A DNA stretch of 64,000 nt, taken from NCBI GenBank assembly GCA_963837465.1, contig CAWINB010000004.1, positions 202,853 to 266,852 on the forward strand, read 5' to 3'. This DNA is from Candidatus Doudnabacteria bacterium. Lineage in GTDB: Bacteria; Patescibacteriota; Doudnabacteria; UBA920. The position numbers and the translations under genes were made by a program. Under the pieces are notes generated by a model that saw nothing but the letters and a program-made list of their open reading frames with translations, was not told the DNA's origin and did no database searches. Positions 6,061 through 60,995 of the stretch are shown here, one piece after another. The first letter of the stretch is position 1, and each line of letters begins with the position of its first letter.

Positions 6061-6403
6061 TTTTTGTTTCTAAGCGCTTACTTATTGATGAGTTGATTAT
6101 AACATAATAGCACTGGCGCGGACAGAGGCAATTCTCATAGTACTGTCAACCGTAGCCGGGTAATATCAGAGCTCGGTTAAACTAAGTAAAATTCAAGTAC
6201 TTTATATTACATAGAGACTGCTAAAATGGTCAAGGCCGCGCCAGGCCAATTTCTAAATCCTAAGCTCTAAATACTAAACAAATTGTAAATTACAAAGCTG
6301 TGAGATCCTGTAATTAATAAACAATAAACGGGAACACCCTGCGCGTTGTTCCCGTTTATTGTTTGTAATTTGTTTAGGGTTTCGCTATTAGAATTTCGGA
6401 TTT

Positions 6404-7651
6404 TTACTCGTATCGTAACGCCTCTATCGGATCCATCTTAGAAGCGCTCCTGGCCGGAAGCACTCCAAAGCCAATACCAATGGCGCCGGAAACTCCCACG
6501 GCGATAAAAATCGCGTACAAAGGCACGGAAAATGTCCAGGCCAGACCGGCGGCAGTTGCTATAACCGAAACCAGCCAGCCGAGCAGTGAGCCAAAAATAA
6601 TGCCAATTATCCCACCGGCAACAGTAACCAAAACCGATTCAATTAAAAATTCGTTTAAAATGTCGGCGTTGGTGGCGCCCAATGCTTTTTTAAGTCCAAT
6701 CTCGGCCGTGCGTTCGGTAACCACCACGTACATAATATTCATAATACCCACGCCGCCAACCACCAGGGAAATCGCGGCGATGGCAATAAGCAAAATTGTG
6801 ATGCCGTTAAAAATAGTGTTAAAGGAATCCAGCGCCTGCGCCTGGGTTTGCACCGTAAAATCATCCTTGGCCGGGTCGGTAATATTGTGGTTGTGTTCCA
6901 TTACGGAAGTTATGTCAGCGGCAGTTTCATCACCCAGCTGGATGTTCTGCAGCTGGACCACGCCAATAGAAATATAATTAATACCCAGCATTTTTCTTTG
7001 CGCCGTAACAAGGGGCATATACAGGCTGTCATCGGCGGAGCTTAAGGCGCCTTCGGGATTATAGACTCCTATGACCTGAAAATTTAAAGTGCCCAAACGA
7101 ATAAGCTGTCCGAGCGGGTTGCTTTGGTTGAATAAATCCGTTGCCAGCTGGCTGCCTAAAATTACCACCTGAGCTGCGCCGGCATCTTCGCTTTCGGTGT
7201 AAAACCTGCCCTCAGCCAGAGTATTCTGGTCAATCTGGAAGCGCGAGGCCGAGGCGCCATAGTAAATAACGCTTTTGTCGGTATCGCCAAAACTGGCCAC
7301 AGCCTGGCCCGTTACCATACCGTAGTCGTTAACCACATTGGGCAGTTGCTTAATATCATCCAAATCCCTCTGCGTAAAAGTGGTAATGACCACGCCGGAA
7401 AAAGCATTGGCCGCGCTACCGGCGGAAGCCGAAGCAAGATTTTTGGTGGTGGGTGGAACGCGGGTTTGGATAAACAACGTGTTGCTGCCAAGGGCGTTAA
7501 CCTGGGCGTTAATTAAACTCCTAAATCCGGCTCCGGCGGACAACACCAAAATCACCGTGGAAATGCCTATAACGATCCCCAAAGTAGTAAGGGCTGTACG
7601 CGCCGGGTTGGCGCGAAGGGCTTTTATGGATTGTCTAAAAGAATTGAACAT
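6404..7651 (-). CDS. ABC transporter permease, FtsX/MacB-like
   Basis: 415 aa ORF. It has an N-terminal TM helix, a large extracytoplasmic domain and a C-terminal 3-TM FtsX bundle ending in the conserved ...KMDPIEALRYE. Confidence 0.8.
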   Translation of the reverse strand: MFNSFRQSIKALRANPARTALTTLGIVIGISTVILVLSAGAGFRSLINAQVNALGSNTLFIQTRVPPTTKNLASASAGSAANAFSGVVITTFTQRDLDDIKQLPNVVNDYGMVTGQAVASFGDTDKSVIYYGASASRFQIDQNTLAEGRFYTESEDAGAAQVVILGSQLATDLFNQSNPLGQLIRLGTLNFQVIGVYNPEGALSSADDSLYMPLVTAQRKMLGINYISIGVVQLQNIQLGDETAADITSVMEHNHNITDPAKDDFTVQTQAQALDSFNTIFNGITILLIAIAAISLVVGGVGIMNIMYVVVTERTAEIGLKKALGATNADILNEFLIESVLVTVAGGIIGIIFGSLLGWLVSVIATAAGLAWTFSVPLYAIFIAVGVSGAIGIGFGVLPARSASKMDPIEALRYE

Positions 7652-14182: not shown

Positions 14183-14258
14183 GGGACGGTAGCTCAGCTG
14201 GTAGAGCAGCGGCCTTTTAAGCCGTTTGTCCCGGGTTCGACCCCCGGCCGTCCCACCA
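14183..14258 (+). tRNA. tRNA-Lys(TTT), copy 1, CCA encoded
   Basis: Cloverleaf with acceptor GGGACGG/CCGTCCC, anticodon stem GCGGC/GCCGT, loop CTTTTAA, T-arm CCGGG-TTCGACC-CCCGG. Confidence 0.9.
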
Positions 14259-24562: not shown

Positions 24563-25723
24563 ATGAGCCAAATTCAAATAGACAGTTTACGAAAAACCCC
24601 ATCAAGGTCTTTCGTTGCAGAAACTTTTGGAAGGATATTTTCTATGTCCAAGCCTACAAAAACTTTCAGCGAGGCCGGCCAAGAGTTTCTCTATTGGTGC
24701 CAGTATGGCAGATCAGAAGCCGTTGCAAAAACCACGCTCAAAACCTATACCAGAACATTGGAACTTATTGCCAAGCATTTTGGAGATGTCCCGGTTAGTG
24801 AGGTTACGCTGGAGCATGTCCTGAATTTGAAAAAGGATTTTTTGGATCGGGGTGCCAAGCCTGGCTATTTGAATAAGGTGGTAATGCTAGTTCGGTCGGT
24901 TATAAAACACGCAGCAGAAAAAATGCATTTACCAGTTATGTCTTGGCGCGAGATTGAGCTGCCAAGAAAGCCCCGGCCGGAAGTCAGGTATTTGAGTCAG
25001 AGCGAGCTTGACCGGGCAATGTCTTTCATTCATACCGACACACTGCAAGGTATCCGCTTTAAAGCCGTCTTTACAGCCATGCTGGACACGGGCATGCGTA
25101 TTTCCGAGGTTTTGTCGCTAAACAGGGATTCTATTGAATGGGGAGATAAGTCAGCATATATTATTGGTAAGGGCAGTAAAAAACGAAAAGTCTTGTTTCA
25201 GGACTGGTCATTGTGGTGGATCCAACAATATTTATCTAACCGCAAAGACAAACATGAGGCCATGTTCGTTTCTCACCAGAGCGGATATCCCATAGCGCGG
25301 CTACAGACCAATGATGTGCAGCGGGTATTCCGGAGAATTGCCCTCAAGGCAGGTTTGGAAAAATTCACACCACACACGGCCAGAAAAACAGCGGGATCAA
25401 CCATGTGGAATAATGGGGCAGATATTCAGGACGTGCAGGTATTTTTAGGTCATGAAAAGTTGCAAACTACTCAAATTTACGTCGGTAAAAATTATGACCG
25501 TGTCCGGGAGGTGCAAAGCCGAACCTTACAGTATCGGGCTGTGGACGTGGGTGTTACAGCAGTCATCAGGTGGGCAAAGGGCTACGACAAATGCAGCAAT
25601 TGCGGCAAAACGGACAAGCCTCATGGCGCAAAAGGTTATTGCATTAATTGCTACATGAATTTGAAGAACGCGCGAATACGGGCAGAACAGGCACAAACCG
25701 TCGAGAAACCGGTGCCAATTTAG
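24563..25723 (+). CDS. Tyrosine site-specific integrase (phage integrase family) with a C-terminal Cys4 zinc ribbon
   Basis: An N-terminal SAM-like core-binding region is followed by a catalytic domain with R...HTARKTAGSTMWNNGADIQDVQVFLGHEKLQTTQIY, matching the integrase H-x-x-R...Y signature. The C-terminus has CSNCGK...CINCY. The start may be the internal Met at about 24644. Confidence 0.85.
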   Translation: MSQIQIDSLRKTPSRSFVAETFGRIFSMSKPTKTFSEAGQEFLYWCQYGRSEAVAKTTLKTYTRTLELIAKHFGDVPVSEVTLEHVLNLKKDFLDRGAKPGYLNKVVMLVRSVIKHAAEKMHLPVMSWREIELPRKPRPEVRYLSQSELDRAMSFIHTDTLQGIRFKAVFTAMLDTGMRISEVLSLNRDSIEWGDKSAYIIGKGSKKRKVLFQDWSLWWIQQYLSNRKDKHEAMFVSHQSGYPIARLQTNDVQRVFRRIALKAGLEKFTPHTARKTAGSTMWNNGADIQDVQVFLGHEKLQTTQIYVGKNYDRVREVQSRTLQYRAVDVGVTAVIRWAKGYDKCSNCGKTDKPHGAKGYCINCYMNLKNARIRAEQAQTVEKPVPI

Positions 25724-25760
25724 ACTTGCATTTGTATACCGGTTATGTTAATATGGATGT

Positions 25761-25949
25761 ATGCATGAACAAAAGCTTAGTCGGAACATGGCAGTGGTGA
25801 TTTTAAGGAAGGCTAACCCAAAAGTCTTTACTTTTGACGAATTAGCCGATTTATTTGAGGTTCAGAAGCATGTTGTGCATAAAGTGTTTCTGCGAGATAA
25901 GGATAAATATAACTTGCCAAACGAAAGTCTAGTAAATTCAAGGGTTTGA
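25761..25949 (+). CDS. Small hypothetical protein downstream of the integrase
   Basis: 62 aa ORF between the integrase gene and the att-like core and tRNA-Lys. Confidence 0.25.
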   Translation: MHEQKLSRNMAVVILRKANPKVFTFDELADLFEVQKHVVHKVFLRDKDKYNLPNESLVNSRV

Positions 25950-26148
25950 TAGGATTAGCAAATCTTGTATACCCATTTTGGAAAAATTTGGCAAAGTTCT
26001 TTAAAAAATTGGTGTTTATATAAAAGTAGTAAAGAAAATTTTGGCTCAATGATTGATGCTTTATCACACTGGGCTGAGTTCGACCCCATTAGACGACAAA
26101 GGCTCCTAATTTCCCAGTCTGTATACCTTTGAAAAATTTAATACTCGT

Positions 26149-26224
26149 GGGTCGGTAGCTCAGCTGGTAGAGCAGCGGCCTTTTAAGCCGTTTGTCGAGG
26201 GTTCGACCCCCTCCCGACCCACCA
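26149..26224 (+). tRNA. tRNA-Lys(TTT), copy 2 (different acceptor and T stems from copy 1)
   Basis: Cloverleaf with acceptor GGGTCGG/CCGACCC and T-arm GAGGG-TTCGACC-CCCTC. Positions 8-47 are identical to copy 1. Confidence 0.9.
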
Positions 26225-27665
26225 TATTGAACTTCTTGGAATCTGCAACGAGTTTAAACTCATTTTTCCAATTGGGGATTAGTGTTTCTCCATTCCAAGA
26301 AAAGTTTTCCAACATAGACTTCACCAAACGCCTTTTCCCTTCGGGAGAGGCTTTTTGGTAAGAGAAATAAGGATTTCTTAAAAGTTTTCCAAGTAGCACC
26401 ATTTGGTCTAAAATCTTTTCATCCGCAGTATCCAAAGCAACCCGCCTTTGCCTAAGCACTAATGATTGGTTAACAAACCTGGCCTTTAGCGAATTGTAAG
26501 TGTCTTCCTCAATTTTACCCTCAATTAGCCTCATTGCCAAGGCCTCAGTTTGTTGCCTTATTCTGACCTCGTCCATCTGAATTTTCTTTAGTTCGTCATC
26601 CTTGCAAAAGTTCATATCAGTCCGAAAACTCTTGACGGCTTCAATATATTTCTGCCCCTCTTGCTCGCTGAACTGGATTTCTTTTAACCGTTTTAAAAAC
26701 TGTTTTTCAATGACGGCTTCCCCAATATTTTTAAAGCCGCAGTTTTTATTTCGGCAATTGTAATATTTATATTTTTTCTTTGCCGAAACACAGCGTAGTT
26801 TACCTTTGCACAAAGGGCAGAATACTAAATTTTGAAAAACATAAATAAAAGTTTTGCTATGCTTGTAGCCTCTGCCACTTAAAACTACCTGCACTTGATC
26901 GTAAAGGTCTTTGGTGACAATGGGGGTATGCTTGCCCTCAATCGGTTCCTTGCGATAGCGAAAGAAGCCGTAGTAAAACGGATTGCGTAATATGTGAGCC
27001 AGTTTATTTTTACTTAACTTACAGCCTTTTTTAGTAAGTAAGCCCATTTCAGTTAAAATATCGGTTAACTGCACTAGCGAATAATTGCCTGTAGCGTACA
27101 TTTCAAAAGCTCTTTTTATAAACGGTGCTTTCACTGGATCTGGTTCTTTAAAAGCTTTCTTGCCCATGTTGACATAGCCTATCGGAGCAGGTAATGGAGT
27201 CATCCCTAAATTTAATAATCCGCTTATGCCTTTGTTGACTTCCTGCTTTAGGTTGGCAACGTAAGACTTGGCAAAACCAAATTGGATAAATAATATGCCC
27301 TTGTTGGGAGTTGAACTGGAAATTCCGTCAGCTACAAAATGCAGATCAAAACCAGCGTTCATCATATCTTCTAAAATTATCATATCCTGAAAATTCCTGG
27401 AGGCTCGGTCAACTTTATTAAAAATAATGCCTTTAACTTTATAATGTTTAGCTAATGCTATCATTTCGTGAAATTCATGGCGATCAATTTTTGAAGCACT
27501 TTCAATCTCCCTGAAAACTTTGAAAATTGGCAGTGGCGGATGATGATGTTCCGCATAAAATTGGTTTTGCCGTGTTTGTTCGTCTAAAGACGCTCCATCC
27601 GATTGCATTTGGCTGGAGACCCTGACATAGGAAATATAGGAATTTTGGTAGTCAATTGCTTTCAT
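26160..27665 (-). CDS. Large serine recombinase (resolvase catalytic domain, recombinase domain, zinc ribbon and coiled coil)
   Basis: Catalytic domain YISYVRVSSQMQ...KVDRASRN with the Ser nucleophile. The recombinase domain and zinc ribbon CPLCKGKLRCV...YYNCRNKNCGF follow, then a coiled coil. The last ~16 codons are encoded antisense to tRNA-Lys copy 2. Confidence 0.85.
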   Translation of the reverse strand: MKAIDYQNSYISYVRVSSQMQSDGASLDEQTRQNQFYAEHHHPPLPIFKVFREIESASKIDRHEFHEMIALAKHYKVKGIIFNKVDRASRNFQDMIILEDMMNAGFDLHFVADGISSSTPNKGILFIQFGFAKSYVANLKQEVNKGISGLLNLGMTPLPAPIGYVNMGKKAFKEPDPVKAPFIKRAFEMYATGNYSLVQLTDILTEMGLLTKKGCKLSKNKLAHILRNPFYYGFFRYRKEPIEGKHTPIVTKDLYDQVQVVLSGRGYKHSKTFIYVFQNLVFCPLCKGKLRCVSAKKKYKYYNCRNKNCGFKNIGEAVIEKQFLKRLKEIQFSEQEGQKYIEAVKSFRTDMNFCKDDELKKIQMDEVRIRQQTEALAMRLIEGKIEEDTYNSLKARFVNQSLVLRQRRVALDTADEKILDQMVLLGKLLRNPYFSYQKASPEGKRRLVKSMLENFSWNGETLIPNWKNEFKLVADSKKFNMVGREGVEPSTNGLKGRCSTS

Positions 27666-28429
27666 AATATCTTTGAATAGGCTCCGCTGTAAGTTTGATT
27701 TTTATAGGTTATAAATCCCTTATACATCTTATTGCTTAAAATTTTGCGTATTGATGAGGGATGCCAAAGACTGACTCCTCGCTTGGTCGGTATGTTATTT
27801 TGGTTAAGATGCTTGGCAATACGGGCAACGCTCATTTTTTGATAGCGCTTGAGGTAATAAATTTTTTTGACTACTTCCGCTTCTTTTTTATTTATAGTAA
27901 GTTGTCCGTCTTTGCTGTTATAGCCATAAATAAGCCCTCCGTGCCAGTTGCCTTTGGCAACGGATTGGTCACGGCCTGTCTTCATGCGAATGGTGATAAG
28001 ACTTCTTTCAAACTCGGAAAAAATTCCGATCATTTGCCTAAAGGCTTTGCGGAACGGATCATTATCCGATAAATTAGGCTCTAAAACTGAAACAATATTC
28101 TTTTTTAATTCGGCAAATTTTTTAATTAAAAGTTCCTGTAAAACCAAATCCCTGGCAAGCCTTGTCAGGCTGTAAATTAGTACTGTATCCACATCATCAT
28201 TGGTTTCCAAAAACTTCATTAGTTTTAGTAAGGCTGGTCTGTCTTGCAGTTCTTTGCTTCCGCTAACTCCGTCATCCTTGAAGCAGTCAATAATTTCCAT
28301 ATCATGTTTTTTTGCATAATCAGTCAAGCTTTTGACTTGTAATTCTATATTGTCATTTTCGGCCTGTATCGCTGTGGAAACTCGGCAGTAAATTATGCAA
28401 CGGGTCATTTTGACCTCCTTAAAGCCCAA
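27662..28429 (-). CDS. Short serine recombinase (resolvase catalytic domain and recombinase domain, no zinc ribbon or coiled coil)
   Basis: Catalytic motif CIIYCRVSTAIQ...SLTRLARD is followed by a partial recombinase domain. It overlaps the downstream LSR by ATGA, indicating translational coupling. Confidence 0.75.
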   Translation of the reverse strand: MGFKEVKMTRCIIYCRVSTAIQAENDNIELQVKSLTDYAKKHDMEIIDCFKDDGVSGSKELQDRPALLKLMKFLETNDDVDTVLIYSLTRLARDLVLQELLIKKFAELKKNIVSVLEPNLSDNDPFRKAFRQMIGIFSEFERSLITIRMKTGRDQSVAKGNWHGGLIYGYNSKDGQLTINKKEAEVVKKIYYLKRYQKMSVARIAKHLNQNNIPTKRGVSLWHPSSIRKILSNKMYKGFITYKNQTYSGAYSKIL

Positions 28430-44175: not shown

Positions 44176-44252
44176 GGGCGGTTAGCTCAGTTGGTTAGAG
44201 CGCCTCGTTTACACCGAGGAGGCCACAGGTTCGAATCCTGTATCGCCCACCA
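44176..44252 (+). tRNA. tRNA-Val(TAC), CCA encoded
   Basis: Cloverleaf with acceptor GGGCGGT/ATCGCCC, anticodon stem CCTCG/CGAGG, loop TTTACAC, T-arm ACAGG-TTCGAAT-CCTGT. Confidence 0.85.
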
Positions 44253-44312: not shown

Positions 44313-44641
44313 TGCCTCGGTAGCTCATTGGTAGAGCGTTGCCCTATAAAAACAATCTTTGGGGCCATTCGCCGTAAGGCGGATTGAGAAAAACTGGGTG
44401 AACTCGGGGAAAACTTCATCTCATAAAAAAGATGAAATAATCCCGAGCCAAGTTCCGAAGGGCTTCGCCGGCTGGCGGAAGGTTTCGGAAAAGGTGTAGA
44501 GACTAATAGGTGAGTCCCAACAATAATCCTATACAAGCGCCCAGCCCCGGCCCTTTAATATAAAGAGCCGGGTGATGATATAGTCCAAATTAGCCTCGGA
44601 AGAGGCAAGCGTAGTCAGTTCGATTCTGACCCGAGGCACCA
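44313..44641 (+). tRNA. tRNA-Phe(GAA) interrupted by a 254-nt group I intron after U33
   Basis: The 5' exon 44313..44344 (GCCTCGGTAGCTCATTGGTAGAGCGTTGCCCT) and the 3' exon 44599..44641 (GAAGAGGCAAGCGTAGTCAGTTCGATTCTGACCCGAGGCACCA) join to a canonical cloverleaf with loop CTGAAGA. The intron carries the group I R element (GTAGAGACTAATAGG) and S element (GATATAGTCC). The IGS GGGGC can pair with the exon end GCCCU, with a U.G pair at the splice site. Omega-G is at 44598. Confidence 0.75.
44345..44598 (+). ncRNA. Group I self-splicing intron (no ORF)
   Basis: Conserved P7-flanking R and S elements and P1 pairing. 254 nt, too short for a homing endonuclease. Confidence 0.7.
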
Positions 44642-44702
44642 GATTTTACTAAGTTTTTTAGCGCGGACAGAGTTCCCCTAAAAAAAGCAACAATCCAAAC
44701 AA

Positions 44703-44776
44703 GCGGCCATGGTTCAATGGTAGAACTCCTCCTTGCCAAGGAGGGGATAGGGGTTCGATTCCCCTTGGCCGCTCCA
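44703..44776 (+). tRNA. tRNA-Gly(GCC), CCA encoded
   Basis: Cloverleaf with acceptor GCGGCCA/TGGCCGC, anticodon stem CTCCT/AGGAG, loop TGCCAAG, T-arm AGGGG-TTCGATT-CCCCT. Confidence 0.85.
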
Positions 44777-44930
44777 GTAGCAAACTTTCAGACATTTCAG
44801 ATTTTTTTGCACGGGCTTCGCAGAGCGAAGCCCATTGTGTCGGGGGGACGGAAACGATTTTTTGATTTTTTAAAACAAGGTGCGAGCCGAAGATTTTTTG
44901 TGCAGACGATTTTTTGGGGGGTAAGTCGGG
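44772..44930 (+). repeat. Perfect ~160-bp inverted repeat, copy A (partner 50672..50828)
   Basis: Copy A, from CTCCAGTAGCAAACTTTCAGACATTTCAG to GACGATTTTTTGGGG, is the exact reverse complement of copy B. It starts at the CTCCA 3' end of tRNA-Gly and encodes the penultimate ~50 aa of the LSR. Confidence 0.85.
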
Positions 44931-46329
44931 CGAAAGCGTTATTTCGCCGAGTTTTTCTGCGTCTTGTATCCACTCTTTGAGAGGTGCGAGCCAGATTGTC
45001 CGTTGTTGTTCAAGACGGGCTATTTGCTCCTCCAGCGACTTCTTATCGGACACAAGAACGTTCTTTTGTGTCCGATAGGTTTCCTGCTCAATGTCTTGGT
45101 CTAAATAGGCGTTAAGAAGTCGCTGGAGCTTGCGGTCAATCTCATCTGTCCTTGAACGCAAGTCTTGGACAACCACGGCCACGGAGCGGGCGGAGTCCTT
45201 GTCGTCCTTGTCCGCCATAGCGTTTAGCTGTTCCGCCCACTCTGGTGGCATTACAAAGGTTTTAAGGATAGTTGTAAGCTGGTTGTCCAGTTCCGTGTCC
45301 CTGACGGACAACTGCGAGCAATGGGTGTTTTTCTTAGTGCAACGATAGTATAGGTAATTATGGACATTGCCGTTTTTTTGGTGCTTGGTCTTGGTTTCGG
45401 CGGTTATGCTGCGGCCGCACTCGCCGCACTTGAGCAAACCACAAAACGGCTGGGGCTGGTTCTTGGGATTGTCGCGCTGGTGGCCGCGTTTTTCTAAAAC
45501 CTCCTGTACTTTATCCCAAAGCTGCTTGGTAATGATTGGCTCGTGTCGCCCTTGGTGCAACTCACCTGCGTATTGGAAAAATCCGTAATAAAAAGGGTCG
45601 TTTAAAATATATGTTATCCTGTCCCGTTTTAGGATTTTTCCGCTCTTGGCTACTATGCCCTTATCTTTTAAAAACAAAGAAATGGCCTCAAGGGTATTAC
45701 TACCTTGAGCGTATAGTTCAAACATCTGTTTAATGATTTTGGACTTCCTTTTGTCTATGACAATAGTTTTAGTCCGGCTGTCGTTAAGATAGCCGATAGG
45801 CGCACGGCTGGGATACTCGCCGCGCCGGACTTTTCTCTAAGCCCCCGTTTAGTGTTGTTGCTTAGGTCTAAAATAAACTGGTTAGCCATTCCAAACTCAA
45901 CGCTCATAAGCAGAACGTTATCAGTCGAGCGATAGCTCCGCTCATTGGTTTGGATATGCTGGATTATGCCGCGCTGTAAAAACCAGCTAATCTGCCCGCC
46001 GTCCACGGGGTTGCGGGCGAGCCTGTCCAGTTTCCAGCAGACAAGGCCTTGAGCTTCGCCTTTTTCAATCCGGCTCATCATCTCGGAAAACACCGGACGG
46101 CCTAAAGATTTAGCCGACTGTTTTTCCACAAACTCGCAAGCAATAGATAAGTCCTGCTCTTTTGCCAAAGCCCGCAACTCCGTGAGCTGGGCTTCTATGG
46201 ATAAAACCTGTTTATCCTCAACATCGGTGGACTTGCGGGCGTAGAGAAAATAGTTATCGTTTACCAAAATTGATTTTTTTGCTATCATATAATTGTAGTA
46301 AATTGTTATATATTGATACTAGCAAATAG

Positions 46330-46549: not shown

Positions 46550-48277
46550 ATGAAAAATCCAGAACGCGCGCCGGAAGATAACAAAAAGGCGCAGTTAGAA
46601 AATGAAGTGGCGAGGCTTAACAAAAAAATTGCCAAATACGAGGCCATAGAGTTAAAGCAAAATCGTTTTGGCTTGGTTTGGATTGATGTGCCGGAAGCCT
46701 TTGAAGATGATGTTGAAAACAAACTGCCGATTTTAGAAGAAGTGCCAAAGTTGGCAATAAACAGCAAAGACGGCAAGCCAACACATTTGCTTATTGAGGG
46801 CGACAACTATCACGCTTTAACCTGCTTAAATTATACTCACAAAGACAAAGTTGATGTTATTTACATTGACCCTCCGTATAATACTGGCTCCGCTGATTTT
46901 AAATATAAAGATAAGAGAATTTTAGACAAGTTTCCCGATGGGACTTTAGTGCCAGTTGACCACCCTTTACGCCATAGCTATTGGCTTTCTTTTATGAAAA
47001 AGCGTTTGGAATTGGCTAAAGATATTTTGAAAAAAACCGGAGTTATTTTTATTAGCATAGATGACAATGAACTTGCACAACTAAAATTATTATGTGATGA
47101 AATTTTTGGAACAGAAAACTTCATTGAAACAATTATATGGAAAAAAAGAGCTACTCCTCCAAATGACCGTGAAATTGGAAGAAATCACGAATATATTTTG
47201 TGTTATGGCAAAACCCAAAATGTAAATTTAAATTTGCTTCCAAGAACCGAAGAAGGGATAGCGAGATATAAAAATCCAGACAATGACCCGAATGGAGCGT
47301 GGGCGGCTTCTGATTTAAGCGCAAATGGAAAAGGTGGAAGATTAGTCCAATCTTTAGTATTTCCGATAAAAAACCCATTAAATAAAAAAGAATACTTGCC
47401 GCCTAAAGATAAGTGTTGGCTTTATAACAAAGAAAAAATTGATAAGTTCATATCCGAGGGAAGAATTATTTTTCGTAATAGTGGAGCGCCATTTTTAAAA
47501 AGATATTTGAGTGAAGTTAGACAAGGCCAAACCGCACCGACTATTTGGGTTGACGCAGGCTTTTCTCAAGATTCCGCTCAAGAGATAAAAGATTTGTTTA
47601 ACGGGGAAAATATTTTTGAAAGCCCAAAGCCTTTAAAGCTAATAAGCAGACTTTGTTTTTTGGGTTGCAAAAAAAAGGACGCTGTAATTTTGGATTTTTT
47701 CGCTGGCTCTGGTACAACAGGCCAAGCAATTATGGATTTAAATGAAGAAGACAAGGGAAGCAGGCGGTTTATTCTGATTACCAATAATGACGAAATAACA
47801 AACGGGGGAAAGCATAAAATAATGACAGATATTTGTTACCCAAGAATAAAAAAGGTTATTAAAGGTTATAATTCAAAAAAGGGCTTGGGTAATTCCATAA
47901 AGTATTTCAAAACGGCTTTCGTTGGGAAAAATAACATATTGAAAGCTGATGACGCAGATAAAATAGAATTAGCTCACAATGCAGGCGGTATGTTGGCTAT
48001 TGCAGAAAATACTTTTGATCAAGTTGAACAGAATAATTATTGGCAAATTTTTGAAAGTAACAAACAATATACAGCCGTATATTTTAGAGAAGAATTTGGC
48101 AAGTTTGATGAATTTATAGAAAAGGTTAAGAAACTAAAAAAACCGGCTGTTGTTTACATTTTTAGCTGGGAAAAAGAATTTGAATTTAACGAATTTGAAG
48201 AAGACAAAAACATAAAAATTAAAACTATTCCCCAGCCGATTTTAGAAATTTACAAACAGATTTATAACCTTGTTTAA
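46550..48277 (+). CDS. mod: Type III restriction-modification methyltransferase (Mod), beta-class N6-adenine/N4-cytosine MTase
   Basis: Motif IV DVIYIDPPYNTG comes before motif I ILDFFAGSGTTGQA. The 575 aa size and the position directly upstream of res support the call. Confidence 0.85.
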   Translation: MKNPERAPEDNKKAQLENEVARLNKKIAKYEAIELKQNRFGLVWIDVPEAFEDDVENKLPILEEVPKLAINSKDGKPTHLLIEGDNYHALTCLNYTHKDKVDVIYIDPPYNTGSADFKYKDKRILDKFPDGTLVPVDHPLRHSYWLSFMKKRLELAKDILKKTGVIFISIDDNELAQLKLLCDEIFGTENFIETIIWKKRATPPNDREIGRNHEYILCYGKTQNVNLNLLPRTEEGIARYKNPDNDPNGAWAASDLSANGKGGRLVQSLVFPIKNPLNKKEYLPPKDKCWLYNKEKIDKFISEGRIIFRNSGAPFLKRYLSEVRQGQTAPTIWVDAGFSQDSAQEIKDLFNGENIFESPKPLKLISRLCFLGCKKKDAVILDFFAGSGTTGQAIMDLNEEDKGSRRFILITNNDEITNGGKHKIMTDICYPRIKKVIKGYNSKKGLGNSIKYFKTAFVGKNNILKADDADKIELAHNAGGMLAIAENTFDQVEQNNYWQIFESNKQYTAVYFREEFGKFDEFIEKVKKLKKPAVVYIFSWEKEFEFNEFEEDKNIKIKTIPQPILEIYKQIYNLV

Positions 48278-48279
48278 TT

Positions 48280-50664
48280 ATGCCAGCATTTAACCTTTTA
48301 CCATTCCAAAAGACAACGATTGATGATTTAAACGAAGCCTTTTTAAGACTTTGGAAAAAACAAGGCAGGCAGTTGCCTTTGGTTTTTAAATCGCCAACTG
48401 GAAGCGGTAAGACTTTGACCGCCGCCCATTTTATAAAAGGACTTAATCATTTGCCGCAATGGAAAATTGATAAAGCATTTATTTGGATTACTTTTAGCGA
48501 TGACTTGGCAATGCAGAGCAAGGATAAGTTCAAAGACTATTTTGAAAACAATCTAGAAAATGCTCTGTTAACTGTAAACGATATAAACAGAGGCAAACTA
48601 TACGAAAATGATATTTTATTTTTGAACTGGCAAAAGGTTGTGCAGGATAATGCCGCAACCCGAAAACTTAAATTACGCAAACCCAAAGACGAAAGATTTA
48701 AAAAAGAAACGGGCAGTTATTTTGAAGATGTAATGGCAGAAACTAAAAAGGCTGCTCGAGAAATTATTTTGTTTGTTGATGAAGCCCACACCCACAAATC
48801 AACAGAGCTGGCGCAGGAGATTATTGACCTTATTAACCCTAAAATAATTGTGCATATAACCGCAACACCAGATGAAAAAGACGAACTGACGGCAAGGCGG
48901 TTAAAAAGTTTTGTAGAAGTAGCCCGAGAACAGGTTGTTGATGAGGGTTTAATAAAAGAAAAAATTTTAGTGCAGACTGAGGAAGACTTAAAAAAATACA
49001 AGGGCAAAGATTTAGATGAAGTCCTTTTGACACTGGGAATGGAAAGGCGGGAAGAGCTGGCAAATGAACTAAAAGCATTGGGTAAGGATATAAACCCGCT
49101 AATGCTTATTCAGTTGCCCAATGATGATAAAGAGCTTATAGCCAAAGGTGATAAGACTAAAGAAGAAGTTGTGAGCCAATTTTTAGCCTCTAAGGGCATA
49201 AAAAGCCAGCACATAGCCAAATGGTTTGACGGCAAAAAAGACAACTTGGACTTTATAGCCGACAATGACAGCAAGGTTGATTTTATGCTTTTCAAACAGG
49301 CCGCAGGCACGGGCTGGGACTGTCCCCGTGCGAGTGTTTTGGTTATGTTTAGGGAAATAAAAAAGGAAACTTTTTACACTCAAACAGTTGGCCGCATTTT
49401 AAGAATGGCCGAACCACAGGCAAAAGAAGATTATAAGAACAGTCCGAATTTAAGAACCGGCTATTTATATACCAACTATAAGCGTAGCCAAGTTGAACTG
49501 CCCGATTTAAAGAAAAATGAAATTCCAAGCCAGCACGCTTACAGGAAACAAGGTATTAAAAATATTAAATTGCAATCAGCCTATATTTCACGCATTGACT
49601 ATGGCGACATTCCAGCCTCGTCCAAATTCCAAGAGAGCTTTGTGAACTCAATGAACTCCTATTTTGGAATTACCAAAACAGACTTGCAAGCAATGGGGAA
49701 AGCCGAAGCGAAGCTAAAAAAGGCGGGCGTTGATTTAAGCCGCAAGCTAACCAACAGCATTATTGCCAATGCCAAGTTTGAAGATTTTGACCAAATGGCT
49801 TATGACTTTAAAAAGAGAGGCATTGATGTTGAGCTGGAAATATCAACCAATGATGTAGAAAAAACTTTTAATTATTTTTGCCTAATGCTCTTAAAAGAAC
49901 AAACAGATGAGCAGGCAAAATATACCAATGTCGCCCGTGCTTGGGGCGTGTTTAAATCAGCTATCCGTATTTGGTTTCAGGCTGTGTTAAACACAGACAG
50001 TAATTATTATTACAGGGTTTTTGTTAAGGATATACAAAAGGGGGCGGCCAGCAAATTCAGACCGGCAATAACCAAAGCCTTAATTGATTTTAAGCCTATT
50101 GCTCAAAGCATACTAAAAGACCGGAAGAAAAAACAGGAAGAAGCAGAAGCTCCGATTTTTGAAATTTTAGAGCAATACGGTTTTACATCTGATTACGAAG
50201 AACTGCCCCAAAAACTTTGCGCTTTGGATAAATGTTTTGTGCTTAAAGATTATAAAGGCAAAGAGAATGAATTGAATTTTATTAAATATCTTGAGGGCAA
50301 AGGCAAACAGATTGACTGGTGGTTTAAAAACGGCAATCAAGGCAAAGAATATTTTGCGATTAAGTATTTTAACAGCGTGGACGGCAAAGAAGCCCTGTTT
50401 TACCCCGACTTCATAATACGCTTTAAAAGTGGCGGGATAGGGATTTTTGACCCTAAAAAAGACCAGACGGCAACAGACCCCGAAACGGCCGACAAAGCCA
50501 AAGCGTTGGCGTTGAAACTAAATAAGTTAGGCAAGGTCTATGTTGGCGGTATAGCTGTTTTTGAAAATGGCGTTTGGAATTATAATAGCTCTGAAAAATA
50601 CAAATACCAAAAAGGTAAGATGAACCAAGATAAAAATTGGCAACCTCTTGAAAATTTATTTTAG
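48280..50664 (+). CDS. res: Type III restriction enzyme Res subunit (SF2 helicase-like with a C-terminal nuclease region)
   Basis: Walker A FKSPTGSGKT and a DEAH box LFVDEAHT. 794 aa, with its start 3 nt after the mod stop. Confidence 0.8.
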   Translation: MPAFNLLPFQKTTIDDLNEAFLRLWKKQGRQLPLVFKSPTGSGKTLTAAHFIKGLNHLPQWKIDKAFIWITFSDDLAMQSKDKFKDYFENNLENALLTVNDINRGKLYENDILFLNWQKVVQDNAATRKLKLRKPKDERFKKETGSYFEDVMAETKKAAREIILFVDEAHTHKSTELAQEIIDLINPKIIVHITATPDEKDELTARRLKSFVEVAREQVVDEGLIKEKILVQTEEDLKKYKGKDLDEVLLTLGMERREELANELKALGKDINPLMLIQLPNDDKELIAKGDKTKEEVVSQFLASKGIKSQHIAKWFDGKKDNLDFIADNDSKVDFMLFKQAAGTGWDCPRASVLVMFREIKKETFYTQTVGRILRMAEPQAKEDYKNSPNLRTGYLYTNYKRSQVELPDLKKNEIPSQHAYRKQGIKNIKLQSAYISRIDYGDIPASSKFQESFVNSMNSYFGITKTDLQAMGKAEAKLKKAGVDLSRKLTNSIIANAKFEDFDQMAYDFKKRGIDVELEISTNDVEKTFNYFCLMLLKEQTDEQAKYTNVARAWGVFKSAIRIWFQAVLNTDSNYYYRVFVKDIQKGAASKFRPAITKALIDFKPIAQSILKDRKKKQEEAEAPIFEILEQYGFTSDYEELPQKLCALDKCFVLKDYKGKENELNFIKYLEGKGKQIDWWFKNGNQGKEYFAIKYFNSVDGKEALFYPDFIIRFKSGGIGIFDPKKDQTATDPETADKAKALALKLNKLGKVYVGGIAVFENGVWNYNSSEKYKYQKGKMNQDKNWQPLENLF

Positions 50665-60919: not shown

Positions 60920-60995
60920 TGGTGCGCGTGGTAGGACTCGAACCTACGGCCAGACGTGTATAAGACGTCCGCTCTACCAACTGAGCTACACGCGC
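60920..60995 (-). tRNA. tRNA with anticodon TAT (tRNA-Ile(UAU)-type, AUA decoding), CCA encoded
   Basis: The reverse complement folds as acceptor GCGCGTG/CACGCGC, D-arm GCTC-AGTTGGTA-GAGC, anticodon stem GACGT/ACGTC, loop CTTATAC, T-arm GTAGG-TTCGAGT-CCTAC. Confidence 0.7.

Follow-up and report, generated by a model that had tools for sequence, protein, structure and literature searches.

A 253-nt ORF-less group I intron of the Phe.2Ug class between U33 and G34 of tRNA-Phe(GAA) in a Doudnabacteria contig

A tRNA-Phe gene is split within its anticodon loop

The stretch of Candidatus Doudnabacteria DNA analyzed here (64 kb, hereafter the window) carries on its forward strand two tRNA halves, at 44314-44641, which are held apart by 253 nt. 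They belong to a Val-Phe-Gly tRNA cluster, and the same gene order is repeated in two related loci, L125 and L237. The genes and their parts are the following:

44176-44252, + strand: tRNA-Val(UAC), the upstream neighbor in the Val-Phe-Gly cluster
44314-44345, + strand: tRNA-Phe 5' exon, 32 nt, nt 1-33 in standard numbering, ending with U33 (ARAGORN on the spliced product)
44346-44598, + strand: group I intron, 253 nt, no ORF, omega-G at 44598 (Rfam Intron_gpI and the U-1/omega-G rule)
44599-44641, + strand: tRNA-Phe 3' exon, 43 nt, G34 to A76, with encoded CCA
44703-44776, + strand: tRNA-Gly(GCC), the downstream neighbor of the split tRNA-Phe

Joining 44314-44345 to 44599-44641 in silico yielded a 75-nt canonical cloverleaf that ARAGORN called tRNA-Phe(GAA). 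It has a 7-bp acceptor stem, A73, the encoded CCA, a 5-nt variable loop, and the anticodon loop CUGAAGA. The exons proposed in the first-pass annotation, which placed a group I intron between U33 and G34 of this tRNA, therefore pass tRNA folding. Its gene limits of 44313-44641 were right at the 3' end, but G1 lies at 44314, and the intron, given there as 254 nt, measures 253 nt (44346-44598).

The split gene is missed by ARAGORN with default settings, which reports seven tRNAs in the 64-kb window, and the same search found no second tRNA-Phe there. Because default tRNA finders overlook genes of this kind, genomes that carry them can seem to lack tRNA-Phe. We infer that the cell draws its tRNA-Phe from the split gene.

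The intron had been described as ORF-less, and we found a single frame of at least 80 aa in it, an 86-aa antisense frame with a TTG start and no Pfam hit, while the sense strand holds none. A homing endonuclease inside the intron was ruled out on the same grounds.

The intervening sequence matches the group I model and its core covaries

The Rfam covariance model for group I introns (RF00028, Intron_gpI), which the first-pass annotation had proposed as a check, matched 44336-44608. The score of 71.9 bits exceeds the gathering score of 50 and corresponds to E = 2.7e-16 in the 64-kb window, and the match spans model positions 1-253 of 253. The R and S core elements were located where that annotation had predicted them. 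We assign the sequence to group I on the basis of the model score, a P1 helix with a U.G wobble, omega-G together with P10, and a covarying core that includes the P3/P7 pseudoknot. The core structure was written from the window's own sequence and evaluated on a 72-sequence MAFFT alignment (A1) of homologous introns; it was also compared with the closest intron among the matches listed, which lies in a Ca. Doudnabacteria MAG (L237) and is 85% identical. The elements of the fold, with the proportion of paired cells and the pairs showing double changes, are:

44367-44384, + strand: P2 hairpin, 7 bp, with a GUAA (GNRA) loop; 93% of cells paired, double changes in 7/7 pairs
44394-44400, + strand: P3 5' strand CUGGGUG, partner CGCCCAG at 44538-44544; 99.6% paired, double changes in 4/7 pairs
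44404-44409 (UCGGGG) with 44441-44446 (UCCCGA), + strand: P4, enclosing P5; 99.8% paired
44415-44436, + strand: P5, variable and poorly aligned, 69% paired; three pairs compensated between the window and L237
44447-44495, + strand: P6/P6a/P6b arm; in P6a 96.8% of cells paired, double changes in 7/7 pairs
44496-44505, + strand: R element, GTAGAGACTA
44499-44505, + strand: P7 5' strand G(A)GACUA, in the R element; partner UAGUCC at 44581-44586 in the S element
44506-44532, + strand: extra hairpin at the P7.1 position, between P7 and P3', 27 nt, with a 5-bp stem and the invariant loop UGAGUCCCAACAAUAAU
44546-44572, + strand: P8 hairpin, 68.7% paired in an imperfect alignment, double changes in 8/10 pairs; two pairs compensated relative to L237
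44577-44586, + strand: S element, GATATAGTCC

Over the 62 core pairs, 90.7% of the cells are paired, compared with 74.1% after column shuffling, and none of 500 shuffles reached the observed value. When partners were slid by 1-3 columns, pairing fell to 33-47%. Double changes affect 42 of the 62 pairs across the 72 sequences. Covariation was strongest in P2, P3, P6a, and the P7.1 stem, the last being 100% paired with double changes in 5/5 pairs, while P5 and P8 vary in length and are poorly aligned by MAFFT. The six pairs of P7 show no variation in any of the 72 sequences; however, the P7 5' strand and the P7.1 loop together formed the pattern used to find the relatives, so that their invariance is partly a consequence of the search. 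Between the window and L237, eight pairs in P2, P5, P6b, and P8 have changed on both sides and are still paired, although L237 leaves seven of the changed positions, in P5, P6, and P6b, without a partner. The catalytic-core motifs, namely P7 with its bulged A, J8/7 (GAUAUAGUCC), and the GNRA L2, are intact.

Covarying P1 and P10 pairings define the splice sites

Among the junctions of the same intron length within the anticodon loop, only U33|G34 combines U at -1 with G at the 3' end of the intron; all same-length shifts were tried as alternative junctions, and none of the others has both. Two further elements complete the description of the splice sites:

44341-44345, + strand: P1 exon strand GCCCU, tRNA nt 29-33, with the U33.G wobble at the 5' splice site
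44356-44365, + strand: internal guide sequence, UCUUU (P10 strand, 44356-44360) followed by GGGGC (P1 strand, 44361-44365)

P1 forms between the exon end GCCCU and the guide GGGGC, as first proposed from the single sequence, and P10 between UCUUU and the 3'-exon bases GAAGA (44599-44603, nt 34-38). The G that had been noted at the 3' boundary is the omega-G, 44598. We then compared these pairings over the 81 distinct Phe introns among the matches listed. GCCCU/GGGGC occurs in 36 of them, GGACU/GGUCC in 21, UGCCU/GGGCC in 6, and GGAUU/GAUCC in 1. P1 reaches a mean of 4.73 of five pairs in this set, as compared to 3.75 (maximum 4.02) with shuffled guides, and P10 a mean of 4.86 of five. At the position that distinguishes the two main anticodon loops, tRNA nt 37 faces guide nt 2 as G-C in 47 introns and as A-U in 33, with one mismatch (same 81 introns, among the matches listed). 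Judged from these sequences, both splice sites are defined by covarying P1 and P10 pairings.

With nt 29-33 engaged in P1, the precursor can have no anticodon stem. Structural work has documented this situation for Azoarcus pre-tRNA-Ile as well, where the anticodon stem is likewise absent before splicing (PMC13168695).

Related introns are widespread in Patescibacteria and accompany either G37 or A37

To trace relatives, we searched species-representative genomes for the P7 5' strand in combination with the loop of the hairpin after it (GAGACTANNNNNTGAGTCCCAACAATAAT). A general R...S core pattern, GGTGTAGAGACTA N50-80 GATATAGTC, had matched unrelated phage introns on viral contigs and was too unspecific for tracing relatives, so the P7 and P7.1-loop pattern was used instead. 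At least 119 contigs match the latter, nearly all labeled Patescibacteria/CPR; the lineages among the matches listed are Saccharibacteria, Parcubacteria lineages, Moran-, Magasanik-, Doudna-, Peregrini-, and Gracilibacteria, and a few automated bins among them bear other labels.

A split tRNA was found in 97 of 120 regions (119 contigs among the matches listed plus the window). By the U-1/omega-G rule, at least 83 of these are tRNA-Phe(GAA) genes split after the second loop nucleotide (at least 82 relatives and the window). The remaining split tRNAs among the matches listed are mostly Asn(GUU) interrupted at position 4; Asp(GUC) and Thr were called once each, and three others are probably miscalled. 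The Phe introns among the matches listed are 203-336 nt long, with a median of 233 nt. At the locus of the closest among them, L237, prs (PRPP synthetase), a gene for an RNHCP-domain protein (60% amino acid identity), tRNA-Val, and the split tRNA-Phe also follow one another as in the window. Intron similarity and gene order make a related Patescibacteria genome the most likely source of the window.

Longer introns of ~540-610 nt with the same loop motif were also present among the matches listed, with Asn, Asp, Thr, or Gly tRNAs as the called hosts. For several hosts called Thr(UGU), Asn(GUU) split at position 4 is the probable identity. Introns of this length interrupt tRNA-Asn(GUU) or tRNA-Asp(GUC) at loop position 4 in L135, L146, L184, L203, L188, L222, and others.

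One locus departs from the common arrangement. In L173 (uncultured bacterium MFD02248.bin.2.6; region 6210-6470), an intact intronless tRNA-Phe(GAA) occupies 6210-6283, and ~25 nt past it only the 3' half of a Phe-type intron is present, starting at the P6 3' strand, along with another tRNA-Phe 3' exon. The terminal G of this relic is now A. It looks as if the 5' part of an intron-bearing gene was replaced by an intronless copy. L173 was the only place where an intact tRNA-Phe was found over the 119 related loci, of at most 8 kb each, among the matches listed.

The anticodon loop CUGAAGA of the spliced tRNA was confirmed, yet G37 is not the eukaryote- or archaeon-style sign that the first-pass annotation had seen in it. 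In the 83 split tRNA-Phe genes among the matches listed, nt 37 is G in 48 and A in 35, the loops being CUGAAGA (48), CUGAAAA (34), and UUGAAAA (1), and nt 37 covaries with the P10 guide. On the evidence of these genes, G37 is best described as a lineage feature of these bacterial tRNAs and no anomaly.

The intron ends in a 12-nt tail that can pair with the 3' exon

Downstream of P7, the intron lacks a P9 hairpin and ends in a short tail:

44587-44598, + strand: 3' tail AAAUUAGCCUCG, 12 nt, no P9 hairpin; its GCCUC can pair with GAGGC of the 3' exon (nt 37-41, 44602-44606)

This pairing would place the 3' splice site inside a G|GAA loop of the GNRA type. The resulting hairpin, GCCUC-G|GAA-GAGGC, has a predicted energy of -9.4 kcal/mol, compared to -4.3 for the mature anticodon arm, and the Rfam model aligned it as its last stem.

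The Phe introns fall into two classes in this respect. Among the matches listed, 40 of the 81 distinct introns have a long tail of 26-56 nt with a GNRA-capped P9, and A37 accompanies 30 of these 40. The other 41, the window and the published seed included, have tails of 8-15 nt without P9, and here G37 is found in 38 of 41 (again among the matches listed). In introns with the short tail, pairing between exon nt 37-41 and the five bases that precede the terminal G averages 4.37 of five pairs, as compared to 3.85 (maximum 4.17) with shuffled partners and 1.58 in the long class (all among the matches listed). Pairing of the tail with the guide is an alternative of nearly equal fit (4.29 against 4.37 of five pairs, among the matches listed). 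The exon was the better partner by one pair in 6/6 informative sequences among the matches listed, which are few and closely related. The comparison only hints at the 3' exon rather than the guide as the partner of the tail.

What such a hairpin might do is a matter for a tentative proposal, which we consider possible but doubtful. In the P9-less subclass, the tail/exon hairpin may cover the exon strand freed by P1, stand in for P9/L9, or gate the transition from step 1 to step 2. As a gate, it would open so that P10 could form and omega-G could dock. Borrowing of the exon could also explain why the P9-less subclass is tied to G37. We found no mention of an exon-borrowing tail hairpin in the literature consulted.

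In addition, the intron ends with the same six bases, GCCUCG (44593-44598), with which the tRNA begins (44314-44319). Given this identity, the tail might pair with the 3' strand of the acceptor stem too; the match is probably a coincidence.

The intron is a member of the Phe.2Ug class

The host is tRNA-Phe(GAA), the insertion follows the second anticodon-loop nucleotide, U is at -1, and omega-G is present; identity to the Phe.2Ug intron Mba55.Phe.2Ug is 84.6% over aligned columns and 74.8% overall. The class is known, if only computationally, and the window adds one member to it. The intron of the window and Mba55.Phe.2Ug share the host tRNA, the site after U33, U-1, omega-G, the GCCCU/GGGGC P1, the UCUUU P10 guide, an identical 17-nt P7.1 loop (UGAGUCCCAACAAUAAU), the P3 strand AGCGCCCAG, and a short tail of the GCCUUG type. 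Only the peripheral helices P2, P5, P6, and P8 vary between them, both in sequence and in length, and Mba55.Phe.2Ug is ~234 nt long, compared to 253 nt here. It is included in the seed alignment of Williams (bioRxiv 2020, 10.1101/2020.01.27.920355); this preprint widened the list of tRNA introns from the four classical settings to 21, and the work is computational throughout. An insertion at position 33/34 of tRNA-Phe, considered unusual in the first-pass annotation, is so only in comparison with the four classical settings, as Phe.2Ug was listed by Williams in 2020 and is found here in at least 82 further genomes. Being already cataloged and common in Patescibacteria, the intron of the window is an ordinary one.

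The classical IC3 introns comprise those of Azoarcus tRNA-Ile(CAU), cyanobacterial tRNA-Leu(UAA) and tRNA-fMet, and Agrobacterium tRNA-Arg(CCU). Like the intron of the window, they are ORF-less and compact (~200-250 nt), interrupt the anticodon loop, and use part of the anticodon stem as the exon strand of P1; the core motifs GAGCCAAG and AAGGUGUAGAGACUA and a GNRA L2 are also shared. They differ in their loop positions (Leu.3, fMet.2, Arg.5, and Ile2.5 in Williams' numbering), and, as represented by the seeds of the published alignment, they retain P9/P9.0 and lack a hairpin between P7 and P3'. In contrast, the window has the 27-nt hairpin at 44506-44532 and only 12 nt past P7. Judged by this architecture, and because the P7-P3' hairpin is absent from IC3 introns, we did not file the intron under IC3. 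For the Azoarcus tRNA-Ile intron, self-splicing and a precursor state in which P1 forms first have been established by experiment (PMC13168695).

The order P7, extra hairpin, P3' is also present in the Lys.2Ug, Asn.4Ug, and Leu.1Ug tRNA introns and the tmRNA introns of Williams' alignment. Introns with the P7.1 hairpin share with the window an AGCGCCC-type P3 strand and AUGAGAUAGUCC in J8/7-P7. The exact loop motif was additionally found in Asn(GUU), Asp(GUC), and Thr tRNA introns of Patescibacteria among the matches listed; many of the Asn and Asp introns with this loop are ~540-610 nt long, in contrast to 253 nt in the window. The motif GAGACUA N5 UGAGUCCCAACAAUAAU further occurs on 18 IMG/VR viral contigs (L241-L257 and L104), where a tRNA context is absent for 18/18 copies; one of them (L253, 3563-3785) matches Intron_gpI at 59 bits. 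The presence of the loop on both viral and Patescibacteria DNA implies that its 17 nt are conserved in a wider intron lineage common to both. The Lys.2Ug, Asn.4Ug, Leu.1Ug, tmRNA, and viral introns lie in other genes than that of the window and are inserted at other points.

Protein-spliced tRNA introns of archaea and eukaryotes also interrupt the anticodon loop, including that of tRNA-Phe in yeast. However, they are short, have no ribozyme core, usually lie at 37/38, and need an endonuclease and a ligase. Removal at 37/38 would leave the tRNA of the window with the anticodon AUA on a body with a short variable loop, at a junction that has neither U-1 nor omega-G.

Probable splicing pathway and alternative explanations

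We consider it highly probable that an ORF-less group I intron of 253 nt, belonging to the cataloged Phe.2Ug class, interrupts the tRNA-Phe(GAA) gene between U33 and G34 and would be removed by the standard splicing pathway. By analogy with the established group I mechanism, the intron would itself catalyze the reaction. Nucleotides 29-33 (GCCCU) would switch from the anticodon stem to the guide GGGGC, forming P1 with U33.G at the cleavage site, and an exogenous guanosine bound in P7 would attack after U33. The 3' exon GAAGA (nt 34-38) would pair with UCUUU as P10, the terminal G (44598) would enter the G site, and the free 3'-OH of U33 would attack after it. Ligation of CCCU|GAAGA would produce the mature tRNA-Phe and release the intron.

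As P9 is absent and only the 12-nt tail remains, autonomous activity could be weak or dependent on a cofactor. A genuine but non-autonomous group I ribozyme, which without P9/L9 needs a host protein (chaperone or maturase-like) or the tRNA exons to splice, nonetheless appears unlikely to us. The short stretch after P7 is in keeping with such a dependence, given that half of the relatives among the matches listed have a GNRA-capped P9, and so is the ability of the tail to pair with the 3' exon instead. Yet the short tail is common to 41 of the 81 distinct introns among the matches listed, which argues that the P9-less form is evolutionarily stable, and further seeds of the published alignment, e.g., Mga42.Leu.1Ug, have very short tails as well. 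Moreover, the nearby genes offer no candidate cofactor, the neighbors being pyrimidine/PRPP genes and the RNHCP protein.

The intact state of the intron bears on whether it still functions at all. The core elements, U-1, omega-G, P1, and P10 are all preserved, the exons fold into a perfect cloverleaf, and the changes relative to L237 are largely compensatory, with eight double-changed pairs, though seven positions are unpaired in L237. These features make it very improbable that the window holds a decaying relic, that is, an inactive intron in a tRNA pseudogene, with tRNA-Phe made from an intact gene elsewhere in the genome. The view was confined to 64 kb of that genome, and L173 shows that an intron-bearing copy can give way to an intronless tRNA-Phe and persist only as a dead 3' half whose omega-G has become A; still, L173 has the one intact tRNA-Phe over the 119 related loci among the matches listed. 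Removal at another position, e.g., of a protein-spliced intron at the canonical 37/38, can be dismissed almost entirely. It would give a tRNA-Tyr(AUA), and ARAGORN with the -i option does report tRNA-Tyr(ata)i(37,253), but this call comes from the intron mode of the program alone, the junction has neither U-1 nor omega-G, and the covariation of P1 and P10 fixes the junctions at 33/34. To our knowledge, the anticodon AUA fits no standard Tyr tRNA and tRNA splicing endonuclease is absent from bacteria. Bacterial tRNA-Tyr has a long variable arm, in contrast to the 5-nt variable loop found here, whereas A73 and G34-A35-A36 of the spliced product fit Phe.

The Phe.2Ug intron at U33/G34 adds one more case to a step of tRNA-Phe maturation that depends on a ribozyme and is widespread, and probably essential, among Patescibacteria. 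Lui et al. 2021 (PMC8172020) noted that group I introns often hide the tRNAs of complete CPR genomes. The intron of the window opens no new question in this respect. The only mildly new angle is the P9-less subclass, with its tail pairing to the 3' exon and its link to G37, which bears on how minimal a tRNA-embedded group I intron can be.

Recombinase genes and other features of the window

The 3' end of a large serine recombinase gene runs through tRNA-Gly(GCC) (44703-44776). The gene lies on the reverse strand at 44658-46288 and is divided into two ORFs, with a Resolvase domain at 45755-46288 and Recombinase and Zn-ribbon domains at 44658-45725. It is followed by a type III restriction-modification pair (N6_N4_Mtase and ResIII; 46550-50664, + strand) of lower GC content (0.37). 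Together, they look like an island integrated at tRNA-Gly, adjoining the split tRNA-Phe. Homologous recombinases with 47-49% amino acid identity are present in the tRNA-containing loci of two relatives, L211 and L233.

The tRNA-Lys(UUU) gene at 26149-26224 is flanked and overlapped by a gene for a tyrosine integrase (24563-25723) and by two ORFs for serine recombinases on the - strand (26160-27665 and 27662-28429), and downstream of this integrase region, at about 30-40 kb, GC content falls to 0.30-0.37. The region 24563-28429 is probably another tRNA-targeted island. A second tRNA-Lys(UUU) (14183-14258) is located 12 kb upstream of the first. The low-GC stretch contains a LOOT RNA motif (RF03000; 32707-32833, + strand; 51.8 bits, gathering score 46.4), and the ORFs flanking it have no Pfam hit. 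Most bacteria read AUA with a lysidine-modified CAU tRNA, and a tRNA-Ile with the anticodon UAU is uncommon. In the window, a tRNA-Ile(UAU) is encoded at 60920-60995 on the reverse strand and scores 74.4 bits against the tRNA model.
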